Part shown: positions 1,113 to 21,375 of the stretch, piece after piece
Numbering within the stretch: position 1 is the first letter of the stretch
Layout: each line of letters starts with the position of its first letter
From: Bacteroidota bacterium
GTDB lineage: Bacteria > Bacteroidota > Bacteroidia > AKYH767-A > JAHEYN01
DNA: 64,000 nt
Direction of reading: 5' to 3'
NCBI GenBank assembly: GCA_023251555.1
Contig: JAHEYN010000001.1
Span: forward strand, 75,433 to 139,432
Translations under genes and position numbers: made by a program
The notes under the pieces: generated by a model
Databases searched by the model: none
What the model was told of the DNA's origin: nothing
What the model saw: only the letters and a program-made list of their open reading frames with translations

Positions 1113-1317
1113 CTTCCTTTTGCAGGCTGGCTGCTAAGGCTTGAGCCGCTTGCAGGTACTCCCCGGTCAGAGGAGTCGTCTATGACCTAGATCATCCTAA
1201 AATATGACGGCCATCATAATCGGCGTTTTCAATTTTCATGAATTTTACAAGCGGAGAAACGGGCGACTTATCTTCAATTCCCCGCCCTGACATAAAGCAA
1301 CAGATGTAAATCTGTTA

Positions 1318-2133: not shown

Positions 2134-2136
2134 AAA

Positions 2137-2598: not shown

Positions 2599-3952
2599 GA
2601 GCGCGCTCATTAAAAAATATAATGTCAGCGGGCCGCGGTACACGAGCTACCCCACTGTCCCTTACTGGTCTGATAATCCTTCCCGGGAGCAGTGGGCAGA
2701 AAAAGTGAGAATTGCATATAACGGGACAGCTTCCGGCCAAGGGATCAGTCTTTATATTCATCTTCCTTTCTGTGAAAGTCTCTGCACATATTGTGGCTGC
2801 AATACGCGCATAACAACAAATCACTCCGTAGAGAACCCATATATCAGGGCGCTTGCAAGGGAATGGAAAATGTACCTCGGGATTTTCGGGAGCAGGCCCC
2901 GCATCAGCGAAATTCACCTGGGAGGAGGCACCCCGACTTTTTTCAGCCCTTCGCGGCTGGAGGAACTTATGGATGAAATTCTTTCATCATCCGAGCTGCT
3001 TCCCTCTGCAGAGTTAAGTTTTGAAGCTCATCCCAACAGTACCTCGCTTACGCATTTAGAGGTATTACACCGCCTTGGCTTCAGGAGAATGAGTCTCGGT
3101 ATACAGGATTTTGACCCCCGGGTGCAGGCAATTGTGAACCGGGTACAAACCTTCGGCCAGGTTGAAAAGGTGGTTAATCATGCCAGGGCTACAGGATATA
3201 ATTCAATAAATTTTGATCTTATTTACGGGCTGCCTCTTCAGCAGGAGAGCAGTGTCGTTGGAACCATAGAGAAGGTTAACAGGATCCGCCCCGACAGGAT
3301 CGCATTCTACAGCTATGCCCATGTCCCCTGGATAAAACCCGGGCAGAGAAAGTTTACCGAAGCCGATCTTCCTGCCGATGATGTAAAACGGAAACTTTAT
3401 GAGAGCGGCAGAAGGATGCTCGAAGATGCCGGCTATACGGAAATCGGGATGGATCATTTTGCGCTCGCAACAGACGCACTGTATGCGGCTTCTGAAAAAG
3501 GAACCCTTCACAGGAATTTCATGGGCTACACTGCTTCTTATACCGGCCTTATGATAGGCCTCGGTGTTTCTGCCATAGGTGATACATGGGATTGCTTTGC
3601 ACAGAATGTAAAAAAGGTGGAAGATTATTACCGGATTTTGGAAAATGGCCGGCTCCCTGTGTTCAGGGGACATCTTCTCGACAAAGAAGATCTTGTTCTC
3701 CGAAGGCACATCCTAAATATTATGTGCAGGCTTGAAACCTCCTGGGGAAAAAATGATATGAAAGTTCCTGTTTTAGATGATTGTATATCAAGGCTTTCGG
3801 AGCCTTTATCCGACGGGCTCATTACGCTTTCCCACTCTTCCCTCCGGGTGACCGGGAAAGGAAAGGCTTTTCTCAGGAACATCTGTATGGCTTTTGATGC
3901 AAGGCTGTGGAGAAACATTCCTGCATCTGAAATATTCAGCAAAGTGGTCTGA
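2564..3952 (+). CDS. hemN: Oxygen-independent coproporphyrinogen III oxidase, a radical-SAM HemN.
   Basis: It has the radical-SAM motif YIHLPFCESLCTYCGC, HemN-like length (462 aa) and the N-terminal YNVSGPRYTSYPT motif. It overlaps the upstream gene by about 35 nt, so the true start could be an alternative codon. Confidence 0.85.
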   Translation: MPNGLLKTITPESALIKKYNVSGPRYTSYPTVPYWSDNPSREQWAEKVRIAYNGTASGQGISLYIHLPFCESLCTYCGCNTRITTNHSVENPYIRALAREWKMYLGIFGSRPRISEIHLGGGTPTFFSPSRLEELMDEILSSSELLPSAELSFEAHPNSTSLTHLEVLHRLGFRRMSLGIQDFDPRVQAIVNRVQTFGQVEKVVNHARATGYNSINFDLIYGLPLQQESSVVGTIEKVNRIRPDRIAFYSYAHVPWIKPGQRKFTEADLPADDVKRKLYESGRRMLEDAGYTEIGMDHFALATDALYAASEKGTLHRNFMGYTASYTGLMIGLGVSAIGDTWDCFAQNVKKVEDYYRILENGRLPVFRGHLLDKEDLVLRRHILNIMCRLETSWGKNDMKVPVLDDCISRLSEPLSDGLITLSHSSLRVTGKGKAFLRNICMAFDARLWRNIPASEIFSKVV

Positions 3953-4069
3953 TATCCCTGTAAAAAATCAAAAAGGGTATCAAACAATGGAGTTAAAAGT
4001 ACTTGACTCTTCCCGTTTTTTTTTCTATATTTAAAGCATGTTGAATTTTAACTTAAAACCGGTAAGATT

Positions 4070-7027
4070 ATGAAATACAATGAAAAAATTATCAGGGTTG
4101 CGGCCCTGTCTTTAGTTTGTGCATCCGTACTCCTGTTTTTCCGCGAAAAAGGAGACTCCTTTTCATCAGGAAAAACCGCACACAGTTTTGATCCGTTTGA
4201 AAAGCATGCTGCCCCTGCTTACATAAAATCCCCCCTGAAAAAACCGGGCGTGAAGCCCGGTGAAAGAAGCAATGTAAAGATGGTGGAAAACTTCTTATCA
4301 CTCCCCCTGATCTTCAGGAAGAATATGGGGCAGTGGAACCCTGACGTTTTGTTTTGCGGGATGACATCAGGGGCTTCGGTCGCTTTTAAAAAGAACGGAC
4401 TTGCTTTTTGCGCTTCAAGGGAAGATGAAACTGCAAAGCATGCTGTTTCTCCAAAGGAGAACCAGGAAGATGTGTATGAATATCTGCAGTGGGATATGAC
4501 TTTTTCCGGTGCCAGGTCATCAGTAAAAATTTATGCTGAAGGCGAAGAGGACAGCCGGACAAATTATATTTTTGGCCAGGACGCTTCAAAATGGGTGATG
4601 AATGTTCCGGATTACCGGAGACTGAGATATGACGGCATCTATAAGAATGTTGACCTGCGTTACTATGGCTTGCAAAATAACCAGCTTAAGTATGATTTCG
4701 TGGTTAACCCCGGGGGCGATATCAGGGATATCCGGCTTTCTTTTACAGGGATAGAGTCGCTTTCCCTGAATGATGCGGGAGAACTTGAGATTACAACCCG
4801 CTTTGGTGTGGTGAAAGAGGCTGCTCCTTATTCTTACCAGGCTGCCGGTGGTGTTTCTGCACCTGTGGCGGTGAGGTATGAAATTAAGGATGATGGTAAG
4901 TCTTTCGGGTTCCGGGTTGACGAACAATATGACAAGACGCTCCCGCTTGTGATTGACCCTGTCTCCCTCAAGTGGAGCACATATATGAAAGCCACCGGGA
5001 ATAACTTTAATAATTATTCTTACGATGTGGCTGTTGACGCCTCTAAAAATGTTTATATAGTGGGTAAGTGCGACAATACTTTTCCTACTACCACGGGCGC
5101 AGCATACGGCGGGTCCACCACTGATGCTTTTGTAAGCAAGCTTAATTCTTCGGGTACGGCCCTTGTTTACTCTACCTACCTTGGCGGATCCAATGTGGAT
5201 GGGGCCATGAGCGTTATGGCAAACAGCAATGGGGAGGCTTATGTGGCGGGTTACACTACATCTACAAATTTCCCCACTACTGCGGGAGTTAAGCAAACTG
5301 CCTACGCCGGAGGCTTTGGGAATGATTGTTTTGTAACCAAACTCAACAGTGCGGGAGGTATCGGGTTTTCCACCTACCTCGGGGGAGGGGGAGAAGACCA
5401 GGCATGGTCACTTTTCTTAGCCAGCGGGGGAGAAATATATCTCACAGGGTTCTCTTCTTCAGTGAATTTCCCTGTTACTGCGGGTGCCTACCAGACTACA
5501 AACGCCATGGCAGGTATGAATGATGCGATTATTGTAAAACTTAATTCCTCGGCCAGCACCCTGTTGTATTCCACCTATCTGGGCGGAGCCGGACAGGTGG
5601 TTGCATGCCCCCAGGTCGACTGCGACAATATGTTTTGTTATGACAATGTCGCCTGTACAAATTTCAATGTGCTGAATGACTGGGGCTATGGTATCTGGGT
5701 GAACTCTTCGGGCGAAGCTTATGTTGCAGGAACTACCGAATCTCCCGAATTCCCTGTTACTGCGGGTGCGAAGCAGACTGTATTCGGAGGCGGGACAAAG
5801 GACGGGTTTGCAGTAAAACTGAACTCTGCCGGCACAGCTCTTTCCTATGCTACTTTCCTCGGCGGTTCCGCTGACGATTTTGCCGCTGATGTGTATGTTA
5901 ACGGCAGCGGTGAGGCTTATGTGGCCGGCAGGACGGAGTCAGGTAATTTTCCCACTACAGCAGGCGTTTACCAGACATCGCTCGGGGGAACTTCAGACGC
6001 TTTCGTTGCGAAACTCAATGCAACGGGAACGGCTTTAACATATTCTACCTATGTTGGAAAGTCGGGCTGGGATTATGCCACGGGAATCACAGTGAATACC
6101 AATGGAGAAGCGTATATCGCCGGGCGGACACAGTCCACCAACTTCCCTACTACGAGCAATGCATACCAGGCGGCATGGGGAGGGGGGAGCTGGGATATTT
6201 TTGCCTCGGTGCTCAACTCCACTGCCTCGTCTCTTCTCTGCTCATCTCTTATGGGCGGAAATGCAGATGATTATATGACCTGCCAGCTTGGAATAGATAT
6301 TACAGGTACTGTTGATACCATATACATCAATGGTACGACACACTCGACTAACTTCCCTACCACTACAGGAGTTTACCAGGCTACCAAGCTTAATTCCACG
6401 GGAGACCAGCCTGCGCTTTTTAAGATGGCAAGCTGCACCAACTCTGTACTTCCGGTCGAATTACTTGACTTTAAAGGAAATAATAACCAGGGCATAAACA
6501 TACTGCAGTGGCGGACAGTGTCGGAAACCAACTGCAATTCGTTTACCCTTGAGAGGAGCCTGGATGGTAATTCTTTTGAGCGGGTTGGAATGGTTTCATG
6601 CAGCGGTACAAGCAGTATTCCGCATGCTTATGAGTACAGGGATGACGTCGTTTCTTTTATGACAGAAGACAATACTTTTTATTACCGCCTCCGGCAGTTT
6701 GATTATGACGGCAATTATAAATATTCCGGAACCATCGCTATTGATGTGAAGGCAAGGCGCGAACTTCCTTACGTGCTTAATGTGAGCCCTGTCCCTGTTA
6801 CGAAGGAACTGAATTTTACTTTCAACAATCCTTCTGACGGACCGCTTTCTGCGGAGATTGTGGATATTGTCGGGAAGGTAGTTTACCGGCAGGACATGCC
6901 CGCCGTAAAACGGGGAATATCCGTTTCAAAAGTTACTGTTGATTTTCTCCCCGGAGGCTTATATATCCTCAGGATTGCCCGACAGGGAAGTGCAGGGGGG
7001 AGCGGAGCAAAATTTATAAAGGAGTAA
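4070..7027 (+). CDS. Large secreted protein (985 aa) with multiple SBBP beta-propeller repeats and a C-terminal T9SS sorting domain.
   Basis: An N-terminal signal/TM segment is present. Repeated units of the form YSTYLGG..D.A..V..SGEAYVAG.T.S.NFPTTAG occur about 8 times. The C-terminal ~80 aa (…VDIVGKVVYRQDM…LPGGLYILRIA…) match the T9SS CTD pattern. Confidence 0.7.
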   Translation: MKYNEKIIRVAALSLVCASVLLFFREKGDSFSSGKTAHSFDPFEKHAAPAYIKSPLKKPGVKPGERSNVKMVENFLSLPLIFRKNMGQWNPDVLFCGMTSGASVAFKKNGLAFCASREDETAKHAVSPKENQEDVYEYLQWDMTFSGARSSVKIYAEGEEDSRTNYIFGQDASKWVMNVPDYRRLRYDGIYKNVDLRYYGLQNNQLKYDFVVNPGGDIRDIRLSFTGIESLSLNDAGELEITTRFGVVKEAAPYSYQAAGGVSAPVAVRYEIKDDGKSFGFRVDEQYDKTLPLVIDPVSLKWSTYMKATGNNFNNYSYDVAVDASKNVYIVGKCDNTFPTTTGAAYGGSTTDAFVSKLNSSGTALVYSTYLGGSNVDGAMSVMANSNGEAYVAGYTTSTNFPTTAGVKQTAYAGGFGNDCFVTKLNSAGGIGFSTYLGGGGEDQAWSLFLASGGEIYLTGFSSSVNFPVTAGAYQTTNAMAGMNDAIIVKLNSSASTLLYSTYLGGAGQVVACPQVDCDNMFCYDNVACTNFNVLNDWGYGIWVNSSGEAYVAGTTESPEFPVTAGAKQTVFGGGTKDGFAVKLNSAGTALSYATFLGGSADDFAADVYVNGSGEAYVAGRTESGNFPTTAGVYQTSLGGTSDAFVAKLNATGTALTYSTYVGKSGWDYATGITVNTNGEAYIAGRTQSTNFPTTSNAYQAAWGGGSWDIFASVLNSTASSLLCSSLMGGNADDYMTCQLGIDITGTVDTIYINGTTHSTNFPTTTGVYQATKLNSTGDQPALFKMASCTNSVLPVELLDFKGNNNQGINILQWRTVSETNCNSFTLERSLDGNSFERVGMVSCSGTSSIPHAYEYRDDVVSFMTEDNTFYYRLRQFDYDGNYKYSGTIAIDVKARRELPYVLNVSPVPVTKELNFTFNNPSDGPLSAEIVDIVGKVVYRQDMPAVKRGISVSKVTVDFLPGGLYILRIARQGSAGGSGAKFIKE

Positions 7028-7169
7028 AAATTGATTACTTCTTGAAAATATTGTAGTCGTTACAAAAGGCCATGAAAAAGTGTGGCCTGAGGAAGCTTAC
7101 TTCTTCAAGTTTTCCATAATAAATTTCTTTTATTGTGTTTTGGCAATATGAGTTTCGGTTTATTAATAA

Positions 7170-7481
7170 TTGCAATTTGTTTCTATCATAGTAAAAATTC
7201 AAAAAAAAGTAATGCAGACAATATTTTACGCATATCAATTCTATTCAGCATTAGGCCTAATTTTAGACATAATTGGCGTTTTAATTTTATTTAAATATGG
7301 ACTTCCGAGCAAAATAAAAGAGTACGGGGGAGGGCTGTTACTTGAAGAAAATTTTGAAGAAGAAAAATTGAGAGTTTCAGAAAACAAAAAGATAACTAAA
7401 CGAGCATACCTTGGTTTGAGTCTTTTATTAGCTGGTTTTTTATTTCAATTTATAGGGACATTGTTATCGGTGAACAGTTAA
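7170..7481 (+). CDS. Hypothetical small membrane protein with two predicted TM helices. The start is uncertain and may be at about 7212.
   Basis: Hydrophobic stretches LGLILDIIGVLILF and LGLSLLLAGFLFQFIGTLL are the evidence. It lies in an A+T-rich region and nothing else supports it. Confidence 0.3.
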   Translation: MQFVSIIVKIQKKVMQTIFYAYQFYSALGLILDIIGVLILFKYGLPSKIKEYGGGLLLEENFEEEKLRVSENKKITKRAYLGLSLLLAGFLFQFIGTLLSVNS

Positions 7482-7547
7482 TTTAATATCAGAAACGGAG
7501 GACAATGAAGAAAAGAAAAACGAGTGCTAACAAGGGTTTTTAATTAT

Positions 7548-7627
7548 GCGGGAGTGGATAATTATTACTATAGAGTTTCAATTGACGGGCAAGCTATTAT
7601 AAGTAAAAAAATAGTTATTATCAAGTA
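7548..7627 (+). pseudogene. 3'-terminal remnant of a fourth member of the tandem T9SS-cargo paralog family (last ~25 codons only).
   Basis: In frame it translates to …GVDNYYYRVSIDGQAIISKKIVIIK*. This is homologous to the C-termini …GVYFYELKINNASILIDKIVIIK* and …GIYFYQITIDKQAIINDKIVIIK* of the downstream paralogs. Confidence 0.45.
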
Positions 7628-8599
7628 ATGAAAAATATATGTATTTACACATCATTATTTTTATTGCCATTTCGTCTTTGGTCTCAAACCAACTTAGTAC
7701 CCAATTATAGTTTTGAAGATACTATGAGTTGCCCGTCTATTTCTAAACTTGGAATGGTAAATGTAGTTGCTTGGTACTCTCCAACAAAAGGAACTCCAGA
7801 TTATTATAATCAATGTAGCTCTACTAATTATGCCAGTATCCCTAATAATAGGCATGGAGGTCAAGTGCCTTATTCAGGGGTTGCTTATGTTGGTATAGCT
7901 ACATTTAATTTATCAGCTCAAGAATTTAGGGAATATATAGAAGTGTTACTAAATGACAGTCTTAAATCTGGTAAAAAATATCATGTAGATTTTTACTTAA
8001 GTTTAGGAGATAGTGAACAATATATTTGCAATGATATAGGAGTTTATTTTTCGAATAATTCTATTAATGCAGGTAATTATAGTGTACTGCCGTATATACC
8101 ACAAGTTAGTAATGCAAATAACAATATGTTAAGCGATAAACTAGGATGGACAAAAATTTCAAAAAGTTTTATAGCTAATGGAGGAGAAAAATACATCACT
8201 ATTGGTAATTTTAAAAATGATGCTAATTCAGATACAATGTATGTTGGAGGAGCATGGGGGTATGATGTTGCTTATTATTACATAGACGATATCTCGGTGA
8301 TAGAAGATACTGCAACTGGAGTTGGTAAGATAAGTAATGAAAAAGAAAAATATAAGATAAAACTGTATCCTAATCCAAATGATGGGGGAATGCAGTTGGA
8401 TTATAACTTATCAGAGGGACAAACAGGCGAATTGATAATTTATAACATGATGGGAGAAAAAATAAACACTTATCATTTACTAAGCTCAAAGAATAATATA
8501 AAGATAAGTGAAGCTGCCTTAAAGAATGGGGTTTATTTTTATGAATTAAAAATTAATAACGCAAGTATTCTCATAGATAAAATAGTAATTATAAAATAA
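7628..8599 (+). CDS. Secreted T9SS-sorted protein, paralog 1 of 3. It has a signal peptide, an N-terminal ~210-aa jelly-roll/CBM-like domain and a C-terminal T9SS CTD.
   Basis: The signal peptide and the NLVPN.SFED…YYYIDDISV pattern resemble CBM4/9-type modules (inference). The C-terminal ~85 aa (KIKLYPNPNDG.MQ.DYNL.EGQTGELIIYNMMGEKINTYHLL…) are nearly identical in all three copies. Confidence 0.7.
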   Translation: MKNICIYTSLFLLPFRLWSQTNLVPNYSFEDTMSCPSISKLGMVNVVAWYSPTKGTPDYYNQCSSTNYASIPNNRHGGQVPYSGVAYVGIATFNLSAQEFREYIEVLLNDSLKSGKKYHVDFYLSLGDSEQYICNDIGVYFSNNSINAGNYSVLPYIPQVSNANNNMLSDKLGWTKISKSFIANGGEKYITIGNFKNDANSDTMYVGGAWGYDVAYYYIDDISVIEDTATGVGKISNEKEKYKIKLYPNPNDGGMQLDYNLSEGQTGELIIYNMMGEKINTYHLLSSKNNIKISEAALKNGVYFYELKINNASILIDKIVIIK

Positions 8600-8604
8600 C
8601 ATTA

Positions 8605-8637
8605 AAAGCTCTCCGATTTACCGGAGAGCTTTTTTAT
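8605..8637 (+). terminator. Rho-independent terminator candidate after paralog 1.
   Basis: There is a hairpin aaagctctccg-attta-cggagagcttt followed by a T-run. Confidence 0.5.
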
Positions 8638-8643
8638 TAAATC

Positions 8644-9618
8644 ATGAAAAAGATTTTATATTTTTCATTTTTTATTTTACATTCTGCATTTTACATTCCT
8701 TCTTTTGCTCAAAACATAGTACCCAATCCAAGTTTTGAGGATACTGCTAGTTGTCCTGATAATTTAGGAGAAATCTATAGGTCGCTTTATTGGTATTCTC
8801 CAACAACAGGTTCTCCAGATTATTATAATCAATGTAGTTCTTCTGTTTATTGTGGGGTTCCAAATAATTGGTATGGAAGTCAAATACCTAACACAGGTGT
8901 TGCTTTCGTTGGGATGGGCACATTTGTATTAGGAAATACAAACCTTAGAGAATATATACAGACAGTGCTAATTGATACGCTAAAAGGAGGCAAAAAATAT
9001 AATGTAGAATTTTATGTAAGTTTATCTGATAGTTCGCAATATGCTTGCAGTAATATAGGAGCATATTTTTCTATCAATCAGGTTACGAGTGGAAATGATA
9101 AGAATTTACCCGATACTCCACAAATCAGCAATCCCCTCAATAATATCTTATCAGAAAAAATAAATTGGACAAAAATTTCGGGGAGTTTTATTGCATCAGG
9201 GGGAGAAAAATATATTACTATTGGAAATTTTAAAGATGATGCTAATTCGGACACCCTCTATGTTGGAGGGCCTTCTTGGTATACTCTTGCTTATTATTAC
9301 ATAGATGATGTATCAGTGATAGAGGATACTACGACTGGGGTGCGGGAATTCAGTAATGAAAAAGAAAGGTATAAGATAAAACTCTACCCCAACCCAAACA
9401 ATGGTACTATGCAGATGGATTATAATTTAACGGAGGGACAAACAGGTGAATTGATAATTTATAACATGATAGGAGAAAAAATAAACACTTATCATTTACT
9501 AAGCTCAAAGAATAATATAAAGATAAGTGAAGCGGCATTACAAAATGGAATTTATTTTTATCAGATAACTATTGATAAGCAAGCAATTATTAATGATAAA
9601 ATAGTCATCATAAAATAA
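8644..9618 (+). CDS. Secreted T9SS-sorted protein, paralog 2 of 3.
   Basis: It has the same architecture as 7628-8599. The N-terminal domain is diverged and the C-terminal CTD is near-identical. Confidence 0.7.
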   Translation: MKKILYFSFFILHSAFYIPSFAQNIVPNPSFEDTASCPDNLGEIYRSLYWYSPTTGSPDYYNQCSSSVYCGVPNNWYGSQIPNTGVAFVGMGTFVLGNTNLREYIQTVLIDTLKGGKKYNVEFYVSLSDSSQYACSNIGAYFSINQVTSGNDKNLPDTPQISNPLNNILSEKINWTKISGSFIASGGEKYITIGNFKDDANSDTLYVGGPSWYTLAYYYIDDVSVIEDTTTGVREFSNEKERYKIKLYPNPNNGTMQMDYNLTEGQTGELIIYNMIGEKINTYHLLSSKNNIKISEAALQNGIYFYQITIDKQAIINDKIVIIK

Positions 9619-9630
9619 ATTACAAATTAC

Positions 9631-9672
9631 GAAAGAACCTTTGATAAAACTTCATCAAAGGTTCTTCCGTTT
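9631..9672 (+). terminator. Hairpin terminator candidate after paralog 2. This is the intact version of the hairpin that is split by the IS after paralog 3.
   Basis: The hairpin is gaaagaacctttgat - loop - atcaaaggttcttc, followed by a T-containing tail. Confidence 0.45.
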
Positions 9673-9681
9673 ACAATAGGT

Positions 9682-10659
9682 ATGAGAGGAAAAAAATTTG
9701 TTATTTACTGTATATTGTTTATTGTTTGCCATTTGGCATTTTCTCAGGCTAATTTAGTGCCTAATACAAGTTTTGAAGATACTATTGGATGTCCTAATTG
9801 GGTGGGGCAAATCAATAAGGTAACTAGTTGGTACTCTCCTACAACAGGTACTCCCGATTATTATAATAAATGTTGTACTTCCACTTATTGTACGGTTCCT
9901 AATAATTGGTATGGGAATCAAGCGTCTAATGTAGGCGTTGCATACATTGGAATAATTTCATTTTCTTTATCGGCTTCACAATTTAGGGAGTATATTCAGG
10001 TACTACTAAACGATAGTTTGAAAAATGGTAGAAAATATCATGTAGAGTTTTATGTAAGCTTAGCGGATAGTATGAATTATGCTTGTAATAATATCGGAGC
10101 TTATTTTTCAGTAATACCTATTAGTAGCAATAATTATTTATATTTACCATATACACCTCAAGTAAGTAACCCAGATAGTAATTTATTAACCGATAAAATT
10201 TCTTGGACTGAAATATCAGGAAATTTTATTGCAAATGGAGGAGAAAAATATATTACGATAGGAAATTTTAAAAATGACGCTAATTCAGATACGCTTTATG
10301 TTGGGGGTCCAACATGGTCTAATGCTGCTTATTATTTTGTAGACGATGTATCGGTAATAGAAGATACAGCAGCAACAGGATTAAAGGAATTAAGTAATGA
10401 AAAAGAAAAATATAAGATAAAACTGTATCCTAATCCAAATGATGGTACTATGCAGATGGATTATAGTTTAACAGAGGGACAAACAGGCGAATTGATAATT
10501 TATAACATGATGGGAGAAAAAATAAACACTTATCATTTACTAAGCTCAAAGAATAATATAAAGATAAGTGAAGCTGCATTAAAGAATGGTGTTTATTTTT
10601 ATCAGATAACTATTGATAAGCAAGCAATTATTAATGATAAAATAGTCATCATAAAATAA
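9682..10659 (+). CDS. Secreted T9SS-sorted protein, paralog 3 of 3.
   Basis: Same architecture as the other two. Its last ~250 nt and the first ~27 nt of 3' flank are identical to paralog 2. Confidence 0.7.
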   Translation: MRGKKFVIYCILFIVCHLAFSQANLVPNTSFEDTIGCPNWVGQINKVTSWYSPTTGTPDYYNKCCTSTYCTVPNNWYGNQASNVGVAYIGIISFSLSASQFREYIQVLLNDSLKNGRKYHVEFYVSLADSMNYACNNIGAYFSVIPISSNNYLYLPYTPQVSNPDSNLLTDKISWTEISGNFIANGGEKYITIGNFKNDANSDTLYVGGPTWSNAAYYFVDDVSVIEDTAATGLKELSNEKEKYKIKLYPNPNDGTMQMDYSLTEGQTGELIIYNMMGEKINTYHLLSSKNNIKISEAALKNGVYFYQITIDKQAIINDKIVIIK

Positions 10660-10784
10660 ATTACAAATTACGAAAGAACCTTTGATTGTAAATCTTCAGC
10701 GAAAGTTGGATAATTAAAGGTAAAGAAATAAGGTGGTATTTAAAGGGAAATAGTAATTAAATTTAACCTTTAAAATCACTAAAA

Positions 10785-11132
10785 ATGAAAGACAAACAAA
10801 GTGCAAGCTCCTATGTAAGGGAGATCAAAAGAAGAACCCGCAGGAGATTTTCATCAGAAGAAAAAATAAAGATCATTATAGAGGGATTACGGGGAGAAGA
10901 CAGCGTAGCAGCTATCTGCCGTAAGTATTCGGTCCATGAAAACCTGTACTATAAATGGAGTAAAGAATTCATAGAAGCAGGGAAGAGACGTTTGAATGGA
11001 GATACTGTAAGGGAAGCAGGAAGCGATGAGGTAAATGATCTGCGTAAAGAGAACGTGCAGTTGAAAGACGCTGTGGCGGACTTGACAATAGAGAATCGTG
11101 TGCTCAAAAAAAGCTTGAATGGGCTGGAATAA
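10785..11132 (+). CDS. IS3-family transposase OrfA with HTH and leucine-zipper-like regions.
   Basis: It has the typical IS3 OrfA features (RRFSSEEKIKII…ICRKYSV…YYKWSKEF) and a C-terminal heptad Leu region. Confidence 0.85.
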   Translation: MKDKQSASSYVREIKRRTRRRFSSEEKIKIIIEGLRGEDSVAAICRKYSVHENLYYKWSKEFIEAGKRRLNGDTVREAGSDEVNDLRKENVQLKDAVADLTIENRVLKKSLNGLE

Positions 11133-11149
11133 GGGAAAGGAAAAAGCAC

Positions 11150-12157
11150 ATGAGATTCAGTCAAAGTGAAAAGATGGAAATCATCAAGATGGTTGATGGT
11201 TCCAATGTAAGTGCTAACAGGACATTGAAGGAACTGGGAATAAATCCAAGCACGTTCTACATCTGGTATAAACGGTATCTGGAGGGAGGCATTGATGCAC
11301 TTGCCACAGGCAAGAGAGAGCAGAACCGGATATGGAATAAAATACCTGTTCAGGAAAAGAACCGTGTAATTGACGTAGCCTTGGATAAGCCCGAGCTTTC
11401 TTCGCGGGAACTTGCCTGGCATATCACCGATAAGCATAAGCGATACATCAGTGAAAGCAGTGTTTATAGGATACTTAAGGAAAGAGGACTTATAACAGCT
11501 CCGGCACACATTGTTTTATCGGCCGGCGATGAGTTTGAAAAGAAAACAGGATTTGTCAATGAAATGTGGCAGATCGATTTTACTTACTTCAGGATCATTG
11601 CATGGGGTAATTATTACCTGTGTACCATTATCGATGATTATTCCCGCTTTATCGTGGCCTGGGAGCTAAAGGAAAGCATGAAATGGGACGATGCACGGTC
11701 AACAGTTGATAAGGCTGTTTTTAACACCGGATTGACACAAAATCAAATGCCTAAACTTTTATCCGATAATGGCCCCTGTTTCATTGCACATCAGTTCAGG
11801 GATTACCTGAGCGATATGGGTATCAGGCAAATTAACGGAGCTCCATTGCATCCTCAAACGCAAGGAAAGATTGAACGCTATAACAGAACGATGAAAAACG
11901 TTGTAAAGCTTGATAATTATTACAGCCCTGAAGAGCTCAAGCGGGCACTGGATGAGTTTGTTCATCATTACAACTATCACCGCTATCATGAATCGATCAA
12001 CAATCTTACCCCATCTGATGTTTTTTTTAAACGGGGAACTGCTATCATAAAACAGCGTGAAAAAATCAAACTGCAAACAATCAAAAAAAGAAAGGAGGAA
12101 TACTTCAAACTCAAACAAAAATCAACAACACAAAAAATTAACTTAACTTTGAATTGA
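11150..12157 (+). CDS. IS3-family transposase OrfB (DDE integrase core), in the -1 frame relative to OrfA.
   Basis: It has the rve-type motifs WQIDFTYF, IIDDYSRFIVAWEL and SDNGPCFIA. OrfB is in frame 2 and orfA in frame 0. An A7G run lies near the orfA end. Confidence 0.85.
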   Translation: MRFSQSEKMEIIKMVDGSNVSANRTLKELGINPSTFYIWYKRYLEGGIDALATGKREQNRIWNKIPVQEKNRVIDVALDKPELSSRELAWHITDKHKRYISESSVYRILKERGLITAPAHIVLSAGDEFEKKTGFVNEMWQIDFTYFRIIAWGNYYLCTIIDDYSRFIVAWELKESMKWDDARSTVDKAVFNTGLTQNQMPKLLSDNGPCFIAHQFRDYLSDMGIRQINGAPLHPQTQGKIERYNRTMKNVVKLDNYYSPEELKRALDEFVHHYNYHRYHESINNLTPSDVFFKRGTAIIKQREKIKLQTIKKRKEEYFKLKQKSTTQKINLTLN

Positions 12158-12200
12158 TGGCCCGAAATGCCACCTTATTTTTTAAATCAAATTCTCCAAT

Positions 12201-12980
12201 TTACCTTGAAGACGTACACCATGCTATTCTTCTACCCATTATAGGTTTACCATCACTTAGAACATGAACTGGAAAATTTGATGAGACTTTACTGATATCC
12301 AACTGTTGTTTTAATAAATAATTGACAGCACCATTTAATAACATTATAGTTTTTTCATTATAAATATCTTTTATAAATACTTTGCTTAAAAAAACTATTA
12401 CGCTTGACATTCCATGAGCAAGTCCTAAATCGCATCCTTGTATTTCTTTTTCGAAATCAATAATGGTGTTCCATTTTATTGAACCATCTTTATTTTTTAT
12501 ACTTTGTTTTTCTAATTCATCTACTAATTCTTTAATATAATTTATACATTGCTTTTTATATACCCTATTAATTAAATATACTCCGTTTCCAATTGCACCA
12601 TGAAGAAAATCAAAATTTCCATTTTTGATATCATACATCATTTTCCTATAAATAAATTCATCTAAATCATCCAAAAACAAAACATCTTCTTTCTTCATAA
12701 AATTGTTTTGAGTTAAATGCTCCATTGCCCAAGCCAAGCCACCTATTCCATCACAAAAAGTATGAAAGTTATATCCTTTGTTAATAGAGTTTAATACATC
12801 AATAATTAAATTCCGCGCTTTTTTTGCGTAAACTTCTTCTTTGATAAATTTAGAATAATAATAATAAAATAAAGCAATACCACTTTTTCCTGTTAATAGG
12901 CCAATGTTGAGATGCTCCAAATTTTCACTTTCAAGACTTTTGGTAATATTTTTCAAAGTATTTTTTAATTTGGTTATCAT
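12201..12980 (-). CDS. LanC-like (lanthionine-cyclase fold) domain protein, apparently C-terminally truncated. The reading frame runs about 15 nt into the right end of the IS and stops there.
   Basis: It has the LanC-type repeats GLLTGKSGIALFYYY, FLHGAIGNGVYL and GLAHGMSSVIVFL and ends …IAWCTSSR*, just where a WCxG motif would begin. At 259 aa it is much shorter than the ~400 aa typical of LanC. Its composition is extremely A+T-rich. Confidence 0.45.
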   Translation of the reverse strand: MITKLKNTLKNITKSLESENLEHLNIGLLTGKSGIALFYYYYSKFIKEEVYAKKARNLIIDVLNSINKGYNFHTFCDGIGGLAWAMEHLTQNNFMKKEDVLFLDDLDEFIYRKMMYDIKNGNFDFLHGAIGNGVYLINRVYKKQCINYIKELVDELEKQSIKNKDGSIKWNTIIDFEKEIQGCDLGLAHGMSSVIVFLSKVFIKDIYNEKTIMLLNGAVNYLLKQQLDISKVSSNFPVHVLSDGKPIMGRRIAWCTSSR

Positions 12981-12994
12981 TGTTTCATTACTAT

Positions 12995-14731
12995 TTATTT
13001 TCCTGTTCTTATAAACTCCAAAGCGCGTTCTGAAACTTCATCTCTATGTTCTCGAATTCCCTTGATTGTTGGCACTGCATAAATATCAGGTTTTATTCCT
13101 ACCCGTTGAGTTGGTCTTCCATTAGGATAAAAAACAGCATCGGCAGTAAAATATGTAAGAAAATTATTTTGGATAAGAAATGATACAGCTTCTCCATCAG
13201 TGCCTGAAGTATTATTTCCAACTAAATTTATTTTGTATAATGCCTTCATCCCCATAAGTGTCCATTCTTCAGCACTTTGAAGATTTTCATCAATTAATAA
13301 TACCACTTTCCCTCTATATTTTTTATGGAATGCTGGCAATCCCAATAAAAACATATATTTTTGTTTGGTCAATAAATATGTTCCCGGGTATTTCCAATTT
13401 CTAAAATAATAATTTGTAAGTTGTACATTTTTCTTATGTAATTTGGGCAATCTTAACAACACACTATACCATAACCAAACATTATCAACATTTCTAATAT
13501 CAAAAATCAGTGCTTTTGAATTTTTTAAATTTTTATATTTTTTTCTAAAATTTTTCATTGTCCCGATACCCGATAAATTTATATATCCTATTGAATCTTC
13601 TGATGAATATGTAAAATTATTTATTGCCGAACCGGTCATCCACTGTTCTTTTTCAGATAGGTTATTTAGATTAAAAGAGACAGCCTTTGTTATATTAGTT
13701 GAATCAGAAACTGTAATTGTAATATCTTTTCCTTCAGGAACAAAATGAGACATAAATATCCCGTTATCTATTTCACGATCAACGGAAAGTTGATGCGAGC
13801 AACCGCAATACTTTCTCAGATCATTTCTTATTTCATCAATAGGAATTCTATTAATTGAAAGGATTATATCACCCTGCTTTAAATTCGTTTTGACGGCAAC
13901 AAACGAATCAATGTCAGAAATTACGGTTTTATTTTCAATAAATTTTACGATAAATGGAATACTTCTCCAATCTATGTAAGATTTGAGCATGCCTACTTCA
14001 TGATTAAAATTATAATTATCATAATAACCATGACAGTCATTAATTTTTGTTATCAGTTCTGCAATTGTTGAATAAAATTTGGAACTATTTGCGCTCTCAA
14101 GTATTTTGGGAATAAATTGGTTAAGAATGTTATTCCAATTTTCATCTGTTATTTTCTTGTACGCGAAAAAATAATTTATGGCATTCCAATAACGAAAAAA
14201 TGCAAGTAAAGCATGAGCAGTATCCGGATAGTAATCACTTTCATAATAGTATTTATCTTTTCCATTTTCATCATAATATTTGTTTAATTCTCTTTTTAGA
14301 TATATATTTTTCCGCGGTTTGTAATTTTCTATTATTTCCCAAAGCAATCTACTATTATCTTTAGTAAATAAATTTTCATTATTAATCCATGAGAAATCAA
14401 AATTATTATATGATGTGTCTTGAGGTAAGTATTTGTAAGGTCTGTCAAGTTTTTTAACTCTACCCGGCAGCAAGATAAGTTGGTTAATCTTTTCATTATA
14501 CTCTTCGTTATTATTATCTATCAATATTTTGGGTATATATAAAATCAATGTTGTATCCCAATCAATTTTTCCTTTTTGAATTTCATGATGGTAGTATTTT
14601 AAATATCCCCATATTCGACATAATCCTTCAAGTTGCTGAATTTTTAGTGAATCAATAGTATAGATATTTTGACAATATATATGTAATATTGAAAAAAGAA
14701 ATACTAAAGAAATCAATATTTTTTTTTTCAT
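12995..14731 (-). CDS. S41-family (C-terminal processing/tail-specific) peptidase with a PDZ-like segment and a signal peptide.
   Basis: It has the S41-like motifs LIFDIRNVDN, VVLLIDENLQSAEEW and PNGRPTQRVGIKPDI, a PDZ-like LKQGDIILSINRIPIDEI and an N-terminal signal. Confidence 0.6.
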   Translation of the reverse strand: MKKKILISLVFLFSILHIYCQNIYTIDSLKIQQLEGLCRIWGYLKYYHHEIQKGKIDWDTTLILYIPKILIDNNNEEYNEKINQLILLPGRVKKLDRPYKYLPQDTSYNNFDFSWINNENLFTKDNSRLLWEIIENYKPRKNIYLKRELNKYYDENGKDKYYYESDYYPDTAHALLAFFRYWNAINYFFAYKKITDENWNNILNQFIPKILESANSSKFYSTIAELITKINDCHGYYDNYNFNHEVGMLKSYIDWRSIPFIVKFIENKTVISDIDSFVAVKTNLKQGDIILSINRIPIDEIRNDLRKYCGCSHQLSVDREIDNGIFMSHFVPEGKDITITVSDSTNITKAVSFNLNNLSEKEQWMTGSAINNFTYSSEDSIGYINLSGIGTMKNFRKKYKNLKNSKALIFDIRNVDNVWLWYSVLLRLPKLHKKNVQLTNYYFRNWKYPGTYLLTKQKYMFLLGLPAFHKKYRGKVVLLIDENLQSAEEWTLMGMKALYKINLVGNNTSGTDGEAVSFLIQNNFLTYFTADAVFYPNGRPTQRVGIKPDIYAVPTIKGIREHRDEVSERALEFIRTGK

Positions 14732-14774
14732 TGCATATTAAATATGCCAGTAAAGTTATAGTATTTAATTAGAA

Positions 14775-15181
14775 TAAGAATAGTATCAGGCAAATTAACG
14801 GAGCTCCATTGCATCCTCAAACGCAAGGAAAGATTGAACGCTATCACAGAACGATGAAAAACGTTGTAAAGCTTGATAATTATTACAGCCCTGAAGAGCT
14901 CAAGCGGGCACTGGATGAGTTTGTTCATCATTACAACTATCACCGATATCATGAATCGATCAATAATCTTACCCCATCGGATGTTTTTTTTAAACGGGGA
15001 ACTGCTATCATAAAACAGCGTGAAAAAATCAAACTGCAAACAATCAAAAAAAGAAAGGAGGAATACTTAAAACTCAAACAAAAATCAACAACACAAAAAA
15101 TTAACTTAACTTTGAATTGATGACCCGAAATGCCACCTTATTTTTTAAATCAAATTCTCCAATTTACCTTGAAGACGTACA
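14775..15181 (+). mobile_element. 5'-truncated second copy of the same IS3-family element (3' ~400 bp only: the orfB C-terminus plus the right IR).
   Basis: The sequence is near-identical to 11820-12218. The orfB C-terminal 103 aa are identical apart from an H/N and an L/F substitution, and the same right terminus …gaagacgtaca is present. Confidence 0.8.
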
Positions 15182-15208
15182 ATTAGTAATTACCGACTGA
15201 CACGGGCC

Positions 15209-15595
15209 ATGAAAAAGTATTTTCTTTCTGTTCCTTTGTTTATTGCGGCTTCTCTCTTCATTATCTCCTGTAAAAAAAACGGGACCGGGGGGGAGGCTGT
15301 TGTTACTGCATCCGTTAAACACCACGATAAAAATATTTACGGGGCCACCGTTTACCTTAAGTTTAATGCAAAAGAGATGCCATCCGATCCCGCCGTTAAT
15401 TATGATCTGAAGCTTACGGCTGACTCAGCCGGGGAGCATGTGCATTTTAAAGGGCTTTTGTACGGTAATTATTACCTGTATGGGCGGGGCTACGACAGTT
15501 CTATTGCACAGACTGTTAGCGGAGGTATTCCTTTGAAAATAAAATGGAGTGAAAGGAAACAGGAGATTGAAGTGACTGTACCGGTAACGGAATAA
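15209..15595 (+). CDS. Hypothetical lipoprotein.
   Basis: It has a signal peptide with a lipobox (…LFIISCKK) and is small (128 aa). Confidence 0.5.
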   Translation: MKKYFLSVPLFIAASLFIISCKKNGTGGEAVVTASVKHHDKNIYGATVYLKFNAKEMPSDPAVNYDLKLTADSAGEHVHFKGLLYGNYYLYGRGYDSSIAQTVSGGIPLKIKWSERKQEIEVTVPVTE

Positions 15596-15611
15596 CCAGA
15601 TGGCTTCCAGG

Positions 15612-16595
15612 CTACTCTTCCGTATGCCCCTTCAGCAAAAGTTTTCCTTTAAATGATTTTTCATCTCCGGAAGTTGTATCTGCAGGATTTTTGTTTTCTA
15701 TGTCACTAAGGTCCGGCTGCCCTGCATTTACCCATGCAGTATACCAGAAGCAGCCCGTACTGTGAATAGCCTGAAGCATCCTTCTTTCTATCATGCCGCC
15801 CAGCAATTTGCTGTATGCTTCTGAATAGGATTCTGAATAAGCCTTTTGCATTTTCTCTCCTTTCTGCACGAAAGAAAATTTCCTGTCATCTGGAAATTCA
15901 AGGCTTAGTTTTTTTTCCAGTGCAAGCACAGAATCCTTTTTCAGGTGGCTTTCCCGTATGATGTTCCATATTTTTACGGCAGGCTTGTCAAGATATTCCG
16001 CCTGTCCTGCAAAAAAATCATAATGTTCACCCATCAGTTCCGGGATTCTTGACTCCCATAACCCGTGGATGCCGGTTTGCCCCGTGAACTGCCCGTTGTA
16101 GTTGCTTGTTGTGTGCAGGGGGACATGGGCATCGGCAATATAGTGGCCGATGTTGGCAGACAGGTATAGTATTTTATCCACATCTTTTGCCTTGAATGCT
16201 TCTGTAAGTTTATAAAGAATGCGGTCAAGATACCAGGGAAGAATTCCATGTTGCACCATGCTGTCCATGGAATATTTTTTTACTGCCGCGTTCCATTGCC
16301 TTGGGATGCTGTCAATATTTTCAAACCTGTAAAATTCCATATCCATAAAATGTCTCGGAGCTTCATTTTTGTCGCTGTATCTCCTGCGGTCTGCGTCCAC
16401 AGCGTGTGCGGACAGGTACTCAATATGTTTTTTGTAAAATCCGAAAAGCTCCGGCGGCATGGTGAAAACAGCCATGTAATTGATTTTTTTATGCCCCCAG
16501 AATCCCCATGGATAAGTAACGGAGGTGAAGATAACCGGAACGATGACAATACATGCGGCAACAAATATTTTCAGAATAGGAAACCTTTTTTTCAT
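15612..16595 (-). CDS. S1/P1-type zinc-dependent nuclease family protein.
   Basis: It has an N-terminal signal followed by WGFWGH, then HFMDME, GHYIADAHVPLH and HGLWESR. These match the conserved metal-ligand blocks of P1 nuclease. Confidence 0.55.
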   Translation of the reverse strand: MKKRFPILKIFVAACIVIVPVIFTSVTYPWGFWGHKKINYMAVFTMPPELFGFYKKHIEYLSAHAVDADRRRYSDKNEAPRHFMDMEFYRFENIDSIPRQWNAAVKKYSMDSMVQHGILPWYLDRILYKLTEAFKAKDVDKILYLSANIGHYIADAHVPLHTTSNYNGQFTGQTGIHGLWESRIPELMGEHYDFFAGQAEYLDKPAVKIWNIIRESHLKKDSVLALEKKLSLEFPDDRKFSFVQKGEKMQKAYSESYSEAYSKLLGGMIERRMLQAIHSTGCFWYTAWVNAGQPDLSDIENKNPADTTSGDEKSFKGKLLLKGHTEE

Positions 16596-16655
16596 ATGAT
16601 ATAAAAACCGGAGAAAAAATTTTACTGCTTATCAGTCTCCTGCTGTCTGCCTGTT

Positions 16656-17384
16656 TTACGAATTTAAATTCACGAGAAAATCTCCTTCCAATACCGGGAT
16701 AACTGAAGTCTGGTCAGGGGTGAGGCAGTAGGCAATGTCTTTTTCTATATGTAATCTCTGTAATCTTTTCCTGTGGGAAGAATTCTCAAGGAAGTTATAA
16801 AGGTCAGGCTTTGCTTTTTCATATAAGTGTGATGCTGCGAGCGCGGAATCGCATTCGGTATAAAAGCCGGCCTTACCTGTCAGATAGCTCACTACAGCAC
16901 CTGCAAAAAGGGTGTCTTCAAGGTTAAACTTATTTTTCCAGCCTGCACACAGGCAGATTACATTTTTTCCCTCCCCGGCCATCCAGCGGCAGAGTGCGCT
17001 GATATTCAGGAAAGATCCAATTGCAACCTTATATGATCCGGCAGCCGCCCTGATCGCCCTTGTCCCGTTGGTGGTGGTCAGGGCAATGGTTTTTCCTTTA
17101 AGGTCCCGGGACATAAAACTGAAGGGGGAATTTCCAAGGTCAAACCCGGGAACCATTTCTCCTTTGCGTTCGGCAGCCACAATGAAACCCTTATTACGGT
17201 ATGCCATGCTCTCTTCCGTGGTCTCAACAGGAACAATACGCCCGGCCCCATGTTCAAAAGCCACGCAGATGGATGAGGTGGCACGCAAAACATCAGCCAC
17301 TACCACTATGCAGTCTTTACTGTCGAACAGCCCGAACAAAGCGGGAGAAAAGCAAACCTCTATTGTGTTTCCTGCTTTCTGCAT
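16656..17384 (-). CDS. 2-phosphosulfolactate phosphatase (ComB) family protein.
   Basis: It has the IVVVADVLRATSSI block characteristic of ComB and a ComB-like length of 242 aa. Confidence 0.6.
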   Translation of the reverse strand: MQKAGNTIEVCFSPALFGLFDSKDCIVVVADVLRATSSICVAFEHGAGRIVPVETTEESMAYRNKGFIVAAERKGEMVPGFDLGNSPFSFMSRDLKGKTIALTTTNGTRAIRAAAGSYKVAIGSFLNISALCRWMAGEGKNVICLCAGWKNKFNLEDTLFAGAVVSYLTGKAGFYTECDSALAASHLYEKAKPDLYNFLENSSHRKRLQRLHIEKDIAYCLTPDQTSVIPVLEGDFLVNLNS

Positions 17385-17386
17385 GA

Positions 17387-18472
17387 TTAGCTTTTTATAT
17401 AGAAAGGCATTTTCACCACCCTGGCTCTGAGCGCTTTATCGCGTACGGGGATAAATATTTCAGCACCTTCATGTGCAAAGGAAGAGTTTACATATCCCAT
17501 GCCAATGCCTTTCTGAAGGGTAGGGGACTGTGTCCCGGAAGTGGTTACCCCGATAGTGTTTCCCCCGCTGTCTTTTATTTCATAACCATGGCGCGGGATG
17601 CCCCTGTCAATCATTTCAAAGCCCACAAGTTTTTTTTCCGTTCCTTTTTCTTTCTGATTCTTTAATGCCTGGCAATTGGTGAAATCCTTTGTAAACTTTG
17701 TAATCCAGCCCAGGCCTGCTTCAATGGGAGAGGTGGTATCGTCAATATCATTTCCATAAAGGCAGAACCCCATTTCGAGGCGGAGGGTATCCCTGGCTCC
17801 GAGACCTATAGGCCTGATACCAAACTCCTCCCCGGCTTTCATGACAGCACTCCATATTTTTTCTGCATGTTCATTAGGGAAATAGATTTCAAATCCTCCT
17901 GAACCGGTATAGCCGGTGTTGGAAATTATTACTCCCTCAACACCAGAGAACACACCGCGCCTGAAGCAGTAGTATGGAATTTCCGCGAGATTGACAGGCG
18001 TAAGTTTCTGGAGTGTAGCCTGTGCCTTCGGGCCCTGCACTGCAAGAAGCGAGGTTTTGTCCGAAATATTTTTCATCTCCGCGCCCATGGTATTGAAGGA
18101 GGAAATCCATTGCCAGTCCTTTTCAATGTTGGATGCATTCACTACCAGCATGTATTCATCATGCGTAAGCTTATACACAATCAAATCATCTACAATCCCG
18201 CCCTGCTTGTTAGGGAGGCAGGAGTACTGGGCTTTTCCTTCGGAAAGCTTTGAGGCGTCATTAGAGGTGACTTTTTGTATGAGATCAAGGGCATGCGGGC
18301 CTTTTATTATAAATTCTCCCATGTGGGAAACATCAAAGATACCTGCGCTTTTCCTGACTGTTTCATGTTCGGCATTAATGCTGCTGTACAGAACAGGCAT
18401 ATTGTATCCGGCGAAGGAAACCATCTTGGCTCCAAGAGCTATGTGGGTTTGTGTTAAAGCAGTGTTTTTCAT
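17387..18472 (-). CDS. gcvT: Glycine cleavage system T protein (aminomethyltransferase).
   Basis: It has the N-terminal [37 protein letters not shown], and GcvT length and pattern throughout. Confidence 0.9.
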
Positions 18473-18477
18473 AATAA

Positions 18478-19071
18478 TTATTTTTTCCGTCCTGTTTTTT
18501 GTACCCGGTTATTGCGGAGCTCATATTCTTCATGACTTTCAGGGCAGTATGCATAGCCATCCCTGTTAAAGTCAAGGCGGTGCCCGGATTCGCTCATCCA
18601 GCCTGTTTGGCGTGCAGGGTTGCCGACCACCAGTGCATAGGGAGGCACTTCCTTTGTTACCACGGCTCCTGCGCCTATGAACGCATATTCTCCTATATTA
18701 TGCCCGCACACAATAGTGGCGTTGGCTCCTATGCTTGCACCTTTTCTGACAAGCGTTTTTTCGTACTTGTCTCTTCTCACCACCGCGCTTCTCGGGTTGG
18801 TAATATTTGTAAAAACCATGGAAGGGCCGAGGAAAACATCATCTTCGCAGGTTACCCCGGTATAGATGGAAACATTGTTCTGTACCTTCACATTGTTGCC
18901 GAGTATTACGCCGGGGGATATCACCACGTTTTGTCCTATGTTACAGCGTTCTCCTATGGTGCATCCGGGCATCAGGTGAGAGAAGTGCCATATTTTTGAG
19001 TCTTTGCCGATGGTGCAGCCTTCATCAACCACCGCCGTCGGATGAGCAAAGTATTCCTGGTTTTTCTTCAT
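18478..19071 (-). CDS. Left-handed beta-helix (hexapeptide-repeat) sugar N-acetyltransferase (WbpD/WxcM-like). This is the first gene of the glycan locus.
   Basis: It has repeated [LIV]-G-x-x-x-x-I hexapeptides ([26 protein letters not shown]) and a 197-aa size typical of NDP-aminosugar acetyltransferases. Confidence 0.7.
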
Positions 19072-20045: not shown

Positions 20046-20050
20046 GAGAT

Positions 20051-21373: not shown

Positions 21374-21375
21374 AA

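Follow-up and report, generated by a model that had tools for sequence, protein, structure and literature searches.

A probable horizontally acquired, insertion-sequence-remodelled island with a putative lanthipeptide-cluster remnant in an uncultured Bacteroidota

An A+T-rich block of 8154 bp, at positions 7028–15181 of a 64,000-nt stretch of DNA (the window) from an uncultured member of the Bacteroidota, is probably a horizontally acquired island that came from an A+T-rich Bacteroidota, was remodelled by insertion sequences (ISs) and now lies in a host genome of ~44% G+C; we put the probability of this reading at about 80%. The window belongs to a metagenome-assembled contig of 476,781 bp (ENA ERZ27297570). 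The island carries a small open reading frame (ORF), three tandem genes for secreted proteins with a type IX secretion system (T9SS) sorting domain, the remnant of a fourth, a complete IS3-family element, a truncated lanC gene (lanC'), an intact PDZ/S41 peptidase gene and the 3' end of a second IS copy (Table 1), so that every feature in the gene inventory of a first-pass annotation, made from the letters of the sequence, is present. The compositional break, this gene content, the anatomy of the ISs, the point at which lanC is truncated and a terminator hairpin cut in two are all directly visible in the DNA.

The G+C content of the island is 31.5%, compared with 44.4% in the other 55.8 kb of the window. 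Among 1-kb windows outside the island the standard deviation of G+C is 0.034 and its lowest value 0.369, and all 1-kb windows below 0.36 fall within the island or straddle its left edge, making it the sole such block in the 64 kb. A two-change-point maximum-likelihood fit placed the borders at 7009 (support 7001–7016) and 15279 (support 15166–15285) with a log-likelihood gain of 274, in agreement with 7028 and 15181 within the resolution of the fit. The first-pass annotation had described an abrupt change of composition after 7027, lasting until 15181, with the right border at an IS terminus. Both descriptions hold: the partial IS copy ends at 15181, where the low-GC block also ends on its right side, and this position is within the fitted support.

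The same departure is seen in codon, amino-acid and oligonucleotide usage. G+C at third codon positions (GC3) is 0.20–0.23 in the five cargo genes of the island and 0.483±0.051 (minimum 0.338) in 46 ORFs outside, which bears out the earlier impression that island codons mostly end in A or T. The fraction of Phe, Tyr, Met, Ile, Asn and Lys (FYMINK) is 0.40–0.42 in the cargo genes, against 0.318±0.036 (maximum 0.392) outside. Composition-normalised tetranucleotide z-scores of the island minus its IS correlate with those of the host at r = 0.408, whereas equal-size host chunks give 0.646±0.065 (minimum 0.537); the T9SS part alone, at r = 0.332, also falls under the host range. Sliding-window G+C, codon usage and tetranucleotide usage thus all deviate and uniform composition was not seen, supporting the conclusion that the cargo is foreign to the host genome. 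Within the island, G+C is 0.305 in the T9SS part (7028–10700), 0.34 in the partial IS and 0.277 in the lanC'–S41 segment (measured over 12191–14740), which is the most A+T-rich part, as had been noted by eye. The full IS differs from the cargo, with a G+C of ~0.40, a GC3 of 0.43 and a tetranucleotide r of 0.448 (0.407±0.098 for host chunks); the description of the island as A+T-rich therefore stands for the cargo and fails for this element.

Could such a region be native, its A+T richness intrinsic to secreted protein families rich in Asn, Lys, Ile and Tyr, or a result of relaxed selection? Homologues in other genomes lend this idea something, as they too lie below their surroundings (G+C of 0.42 against 0.47, 0.32 against 0.36 and 0.34 against 0.37 for T9SS homologues; 0.305 against 0.364, 0.357 against 0.406 and 0.324 against 0.456 for S41 homologues). 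The gap here, however, is 14–17 points, and it appears in GC3, a synonymous measure that is not driven by the protein (0.20 against 0.48). Moreover, the neighbouring native T9SS/SBBP gene is at host composition (0.48), the T9SS paralogues are under purifying selection, the non-coding parts of the island are equally A+T-rich, and the break is sharp to tens of bases. We consider a native origin very unlikely.

A low-GC block from another organism might instead have been joined to the contig through repeats, by an error of assembly or binning. The source is, after all, a metagenome-assembled contig, and the island holds repeats (the sorting domains of the paralogues and the IS pieces) of the kind at which short-read contigs break. 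As an independent assembly we used the Logan de Bruijn short-read contigs of run SRR14366766, which match the window with no mismatches at 1–8360, 10657–11849, 12189–14812 and 15152–25595. The first of these contigs spans the left G+C break and reaches 1333 nt inside the island, and no repeat is present at that junction. The remaining contig ends lie exactly 30 nt into locally present repeats, namely the 3' ends of the paralogues or the 399-nt IS piece; such 30-nt overlaps (k-1) would be given by a graph with k = 31, a value that we read from the overlaps themselves. The left end of the IS occurs in one context alone in these contigs, and the full IS is therefore single-copy in that sample. 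In addition, the two 399-nt copies differ at six sites with gaps of no more than 101 nt between them, close enough for reads to phase them. Since the Logan contigs reproduce the unique junctions and their breaks fall at local repeats, a chimeric join at the island is unlikely, and an artefact as the source of the whole block seems to us scarcely credible. For annotators, the contig offers a metagenome-assembled sequence with direct evidence against chimerism at the island.

Table 1. Features of the island and of its flanks (positions in the window)
Feature	Position	Strand	Remarks
Native DUF7948/SBBP/T9SS gene, left flank	4070-7027		48% G+C
A+T-rich island, whole	7028..15181	.	31.5% vs 44.4% G+C outside
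14-nt exact direct repeat GGCCATGAAAAAGT, left copy	7068..7081	+	41 nt past the SBBP stop, in hairpin 7067-7088
Small ORF, 103 aa counted from a TTG start (89 aa in the call of the public assembly)	7170..7481	+	two transmembrane segments (hydrophobic N- and C-terminal segments)
Remnant, C-terminal end of a fourth T9SS paralogue	~7541..7627	+	..AGVDNYYYRVSIDGQAIISKKIVIIK corresponds to the ..NGVYFYQITIDKQAIINDKIVIIK with which the intact copies end
T9a, 323-aa secreted protein	7628..8599	+	CBM4/16/22-like jelly roll and T9SS type A C-terminal sorting domain
T9b, T9a paralogue	8644..9618	+	66% identical (sequence comparison)
T9c, T9a paralogue	9682..10659	+	68% identical (sequence comparison)
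Complete IS3-family insertion sequence, 1532 bp	10687..12218	+	ends, ORFs, profile match
lanC', pseudogene, first 254 of ~400 codons of a stand-alone LanC cyclase	12219..12980	-	homologue alignment
PDZ/S41 peptidase, intact, 578 aa	12995..14731	-	14 nt upstream of lanC', same strand
Second IS copy, 3' 399 nt only, same orientation	14783..15181	+	6 mismatches (98.5% identity) to 11820-12218
14-nt exact direct repeat GGCCATGAAAAAGT, right copy	15205..15218	+	covers the lipoprotein ATG (15209), just outside the right border
Host-like lipoprotein gene, 128 aa, right flank	15209-15595		43% G+C

The ISs explain much of the present shape of the island. The complete element starts at 10687 with TGTAAATC... 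and ends at 12218 with ...GACGTACA, so that its termini are TGT...ACA; its inverted repeats are imperfect and ~55 nt long (76% complementary over 55 nt). The first ORF, orfA (10785–11132), encodes an HTH_Tnp_1 domain with a leucine-zipper-like end. An A7G slippery site lies at 11106–11113, and in the -1 frame, open from 11111, orfB (11150–12157, with its ATG at 11150) encodes an rve DDE domain (82 bits) and scores 171 bits on the NCBIfam IS3 model, over the cutoff of 160. On the IS481 model orfB reaches a higher score, 214 bits, which is under the cutoff of 224 for that model, and its N-terminal helix-turn-helix domains are IS481-like. Plasmid-borne homologues share ~50% identity, and among those listed the majority carry an IS3-family transposase annotation. 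The flanks of the element (..TTTGAT on the left, CCATGC.. on the right) lack the 3–4-bp target duplication, which we take as a sign of later recombination or deletion and not as evidence against IS3 membership.

The partial copy begins 51 nt past the start of the S41 gene, and 27 nt lie between its terminus and the lipoprotein ATG. The outer flanks of the two copies differ, being GAT (island DNA) on the left and ATT (host DNA) on the right. A composite transposon that mobilises lanC'–S41 was also considered, and is ruled out by the anatomy, as there is neither a second complete IS nor a target duplication. The IS-mediated remodelling proposed in the first-pass annotation, on the other hand, is well supported: lanC and the hairpin behind T9c are both cut at IS ends, the target duplication is missing and the second copy, truncated at its 5' end, sits at the right edge.

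Left of the IS, the spacer that follows the SBBP stop (7028–7169) carries a hairpin at 7067–7088. It is followed by the small ORF, for which Pfam, NCBIfam, PADLOC and PHROGs yielded no family. A role in defence or in phage biology was considered for this ORF and the cargo and rejected, as PADLOC and PHROGs gave nothing meaningful. The products of T9a, T9b and T9c measure 323–325 aa, and in all three the TIGR04183/PF18962 sorting domain is found at the C-terminus with 42–44 bits (cutoff 27), T9a having in addition a score of 39.8 bits where the cutoff is 23. The predicted fold (AlphaFold; mean pLDDT 79) is a single jelly-roll domain that resembles carbohydrate-binding modules (CBMs) of families CBM4, CBM16 and CBM22 as well as the cleaved-adhesin domains found in gingipains. 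Metagenomes contain more than 4000 members of this family, often in tandem, of which the best outside this contig is 46% identical.

Among the paralogues dN/dS is 0.24–0.31 and dS is ~1 in the N-terminal domain, while over one stretch of 90 nt in the sorting domain the three genes are 98–100% identical; together these values indicate old duplications that are maintained by selection and have homogenised 3' ends. Because the diverged copies still share a GC3 of ~0.2 and are thus not ameliorated, the array appears to have diverged within an A+T-rich genome and to have come in as an array. Each gene is, or was, followed by a terminator hairpin: T9a has its own at 8604–8633, that of T9b is intact at 9629–9670, and of that of T9c the first arm alone is left (to 10686), cut by the left end of the IS. 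We searched the rest of the window for the second arm, which would mark the original other flank of the IS, and it is absent. In scans for promoters and terminators the counts did not exceed the shuffled expectation, and these scans were informative for the paralogue hairpins alone.

To the right of the IS, lanC' breaks off just past the Trp codon of AWCYGD, the first zinc-ligand motif, and its reading frame runs 6 codons into the IS end to a stop at 12201. When aligned with its ~400-aa homologues, lanC' lacks the AWCYGD...CHG part, and all three zinc ligands are missing; following textbook knowledge of NisC, we take the AWCYGD and CHG motifs to be the source of these ligands (Cys/Cys/His). 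In line with this, the profile match covers positions 4–222 of 350 only. A search of cluster representatives returned 4375 LanC matches, which are ~400 aa long when intact and of which the best is 52% identical. Judging from these comparisons, lanC' is a pseudogene and a non-functional remnant.

Metagenome contigs revealed the setting in which such genes occur. A scan with the single LanC' sequence gave no matches; an alignment-based scan of these contigs yielded 50 LanC loci. In the closest of them (L055; 55–56% identity), a 6.9-kb contig with 27% G+C and a GC3 of 0.17–0.20, a gene with a T9SS C-terminal sorting domain adjoins a 399-aa LanC, and ORFs of 748 and 301 aa stand at the positions held by Lant_dehydr_N and Lant_dehydr_C in two other loci (L084 and L099), an assignment made by position. 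By Pfam, L084 encodes a glycosyltransferase, an S41 peptidase, LanC, LanB_N and LanB_C, with the S41-to-LanC order of the island. L099 encodes LanC (a tblastn match) followed by S41, LanB_N, LanB_C and a C39-ABC exporter (by Pfam), and its S41 aligns end to end with that of the window (28% identity, E = 3e-68). A homologue of the window S41 is present in 10 of the 50 loci, where it stands beside LanC and, in those checked by Pfam, also beside a split LanB. The loci with such a PDZ/S41 gene (560–660 aa) are L084 (5507–12303), L099 (1–8352), L068, L069, L072, L079, L085, L095, L098 and L100.

Class I clusters with a split LanB are frequent in Bacteroidetes, and their LanCs are related to the cyclase domains of LanM (Walker et al. 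2020, PMC7268733). The NCBIfam matches of lanC' are of the LanM type, which fits this relation. No Lant_dehydr match was found among the island ORFs scanned, and genes for LanB, the precursor and a transporter are absent here. We conclude that 12219–14782 is the 5' stump left by a class I lanthipeptide cluster of the split-LanB type found in Bacteroidota, and that the S41 gene likely belonged to the lost cluster. The first-pass annotation had named an IS-bracketed LanC-like plus S41 pair; both genes are indeed there and bracketed by ISs, and the pair is better called a lanthipeptide-cluster stump.

What the peptidase does is a more speculative matter. Tentatively, the S41 subfamily may be the dedicated leader-removal protease of split-LanB clusters, and may have outlived its cluster here by virtue of a second role; an intact S41 gene next to a dead lanC would imply a role that is independent of the cluster. 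In the literature consulted we found no description of this S41 subfamily as a lanthipeptide-cluster protease. Its recurrence in Bacteroidota lanthipeptide clusters is a small lead toward the missing leader peptidases, and genome mining should not count a LanC plus S41 remnant as a lanthipeptide producer. In one further contig (L051, 276–11579) an S41 orthologue that is 55% identical occurs together with a Bro-N gene and a tail-fibre-like gene of the collagen/Peptidase_S74 kind. The orthologue lies 13 G+C points under its surroundings, which hints at travel with mobile or phage-like DNA.

The two halves of the cargo may not have arrived together. The T9SS array (7028–10686) and the lanthipeptide stump (12219–14782) could be two acquisitions, or distant parts of one larger foreign region, that were never neighbours until joined by IS recombination; possibly a circle that carried a 399-nt IS piece and lanC'–S41 integrated in the manner of Campbell, which would give the same topology. 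The unrelated IS flanks and the missing target duplication indicate that the joints between T9c and the IS and between the IS and lanC' are recombinant, lanC'–S41 is bracketed by direct repeats of 399 nt as a single crossover would leave them, and there is a slight difference in G+C (0.305 against 0.277). GC3 is nevertheless alike in the two parts (0.20–0.23 against 0.20–0.21), the 6 differences between the 399-nt copies argue against a very recent duplication, and the T9SS gene that adjoins lanC in L055 indicates that such neighbourhoods do occur in low-GC donors. On balance we regard separate arrivals as possible and somewhat doubtful.

A possible clue to how the DNA entered the host chromosome is a short repeat at the borders. 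The 14-nt sequence GGCCATGAAAAAGT occurs as exactly two exact copies in the 64 kb, one per border, and could be the attL/attR core of an element integrated site-specifically at the start of the lipoprotein gene, whose integrase and mobility genes were lost in IS-linked deletions. The predicted empty-site junction would then read ...AAAAGGCCATGAAAAAGTATTTTC... and would set the lipoprotein ATG 44 nt past the SBBP stop, a plausible native layout; the alignment score is reached by 0.4% of random pairs of 220-nt segments (p ~0.004, for a pair noticed post hoc). The repeat was indeed picked out only after the fact, however, and the window contains 35 chance 14-mer pairs. In addition, ATGAAAAAG is a frequent gene start (9 copies), a near copy at 25268 is part of an unrelated gene, both an integrase and a tRNA are missing, and similarity stops at 14 nt. 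We therefore think an attachment site unlikely, and are no more confident in the broader suggestion that the pair served as an att-like core or as microhomology used at integration. The near copy at 25268 was rejected as a third border repeat: it falls within an acyltransferase gene of the opposite strand and was treated as chance.

A Bacteroidota source fits, because the cargo has a T9SS type A domain, to our knowledge restricted to Bacteroidota and close relatives, and because a LanC with an adjacent T9SS sorting-domain gene is found in the low-GC locus L055. The low-GC Bacteroidota donor with IS remodelling that had been proposed is thus supported by composition, by the T9SS domain and by L055, while the donor sequence itself was not found. 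The case for horizontal transfer is built on composition because the databases that we searched contain nothing closely related to the host. For the S1/P1-type nuclease in the flank, relatives reached no more than 60% identity in a search of 5.8 billion proteins and no more than 57% in the GTDB species representatives, and an exact look-up of the flanking proteins returned the source contig and one short-read assembly (SRR14366766) only. We also found no relatives of the S41 or T9SS genes on viral contigs, and no integrase, tRNA or structured RNA in the 64-kb window.

Several observations count against acquisition from such a donor, or at least weaken the case for it. The nearest relatives share 53–60% in the flanking protein, so that no genome is close enough to show the empty site. 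Near-identical DNA, sought in plasmids and phages, was not found, leaving no donor, and the best outside homologues are distant (46% identity for the T9SS family, 60% for S41 and 52–56% for LanC). The island has a transposase and is without an integrase, a tRNA or a proven flanking repeat. The tetranucleotide correlation of lanC'–S41 alone, 0.381, is low yet inside the host range (0.49±0.093). The IS, of which the sample holds a single copy, is not island-like in composition and may or may not share the history of the island. The closer S41 orthologues (51–60% identity, ~11 in the database) adjoin LanC in none of the three contexts that could be read. Finally, T9SS and S41 homologues elsewhere lie 4–13 G+C points under their surroundings. 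Part of the deviation may thus belong to these families, or such genes may be habitual travellers, but family bias cannot explain a synonymous G+C of 0.20 beside a native T9SS gene at 0.48.

Distant relatives of the host retain the synteny of GCVT, phosphatase and nuclease genes. In one of them (L008) dnaN lies ~8 kb past the nuclease, and G+C is uniform with no low-GC block. The nuclease–dnaN interval of that relative (10959–18454) encodes a Kelch-repeat T9SS protein, an SprB-repeat protein and a 1594-aa RHS protein. The neighbourhood between nuclease and dnaN thus seems to be a general hotspot for variable secreted and surface genes.

For the foreign origin of the island and the order of events that shaped it, we infer the following course. 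DNA from a Bacteroidota of ~27–31% G+C would have integrated between the native SBBP gene and the native lipoprotein gene, bringing at least 4 paralogous T9SS CBM-like genes, three of them intact, and a class I cluster ordered S41, LanC, LanB. Copies of the IS3-family element may then have landed in at least 3 places: the T9c terminator, lanC and a site near the right end. Recombination between direct IS copies would have linked the flank at T9c with the one at lanC' by way of a single hybrid IS, which would account both for the missing target duplication and for the loss of the 3' third of lanC and the genes downstream. A later deletion probably took the 5' 1133 nt of the right-hand IS copy and whatever preceded S41. 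On this reconstruction, what is seen today would be a decaying island, with working genes for surface or secreted proteins, an orphan peptidase and a dead lanC. It would be a record of genes passing from very A+T-rich Bacteroidota to a lineage of intermediate G+C that has no sequenced close relatives.

Other features of the window lie outside the island. Beginning with the nuclease, phosphatase and GCVT genes, 15612–50000 holds a long run, mostly on the minus strand, of sugar-nucleotide, aminotransferase, glycosyltransferase and acyltransferase genes, a surface-polysaccharide locus (backed by Pfam for ~15.6–26 kb and read from the ORF layout for the remainder); G+C falls to 0.38–0.40 at its acyltransferase_3 gene (24445–25560). 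An ORF at 59442–60788 on the minus strand has three or four internal repeats at a spacing of 282 nt and a G+C of 0.37, the lowest among long ORFs outside the island. G+C-rich double-hairpin repeats of ~75–90 nt (TCCGCCGTAGCGGAACGCTACGGCGGA, GTCCGGGGCTTGCCCCGGGG), which resemble repetitive extragenic palindromes (REPs) or miniature inverted-repeat transposable elements (MITEs), occur at 51025–51098, 56758–56831, 57652–57725 and 63956–63983.

The components of the island can each be set beside a known system. The IS resembles the IS3 family in its size of 1.5 kb, its TG..CA ends and its orfA with a -1-frame orfB at A7G, the classic IS3 frameshift layout, and its 1532 bp fall in the length range of the family (1.2–1.55 kb). 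Unlike the usual IS3 element, this copy has an IS481-like N-terminus in orfB and no target duplication, and its nearest annotated relatives, on alphaproteobacterial plasmids, are only ~50% identical. T9a–c resemble T9SS type A cargo with CBM- or adhesin-like beta-sandwiches, such as the K1–K3 adhesin domains of gingipain, in having an N-terminal signal-like segment, one jelly roll and TIGR04183; they differ in the lack of a catalytic domain, and no solved structure is more than 14% identical to them in sequence. The stump is like the pinensin-type split-LanB clusters (PMC7268733) in its stand-alone LanC that best matches LanM C-terminal domains, and an S41 peptidase of the same subfamily is found in such clusters, whereas the island retains the S41 gene and the first 254 lanC codons alone.

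Taken as a whole, the block is most like an integrase-less genomic islet, with which it shares the sharp composition break, the deviant codon and oligonucleotide usage, the accessory cargo, the border IS and the gene fragments. A typical genomic island differs in having a tRNA target, an integrase or demonstrated flanking repeats. In kind, then, this would be a conventional IS-scarred island, to which the lanC pseudogene with its putative cluster remnant and an S41 subfamily that recurs in lanthipeptide clusters are the additions.

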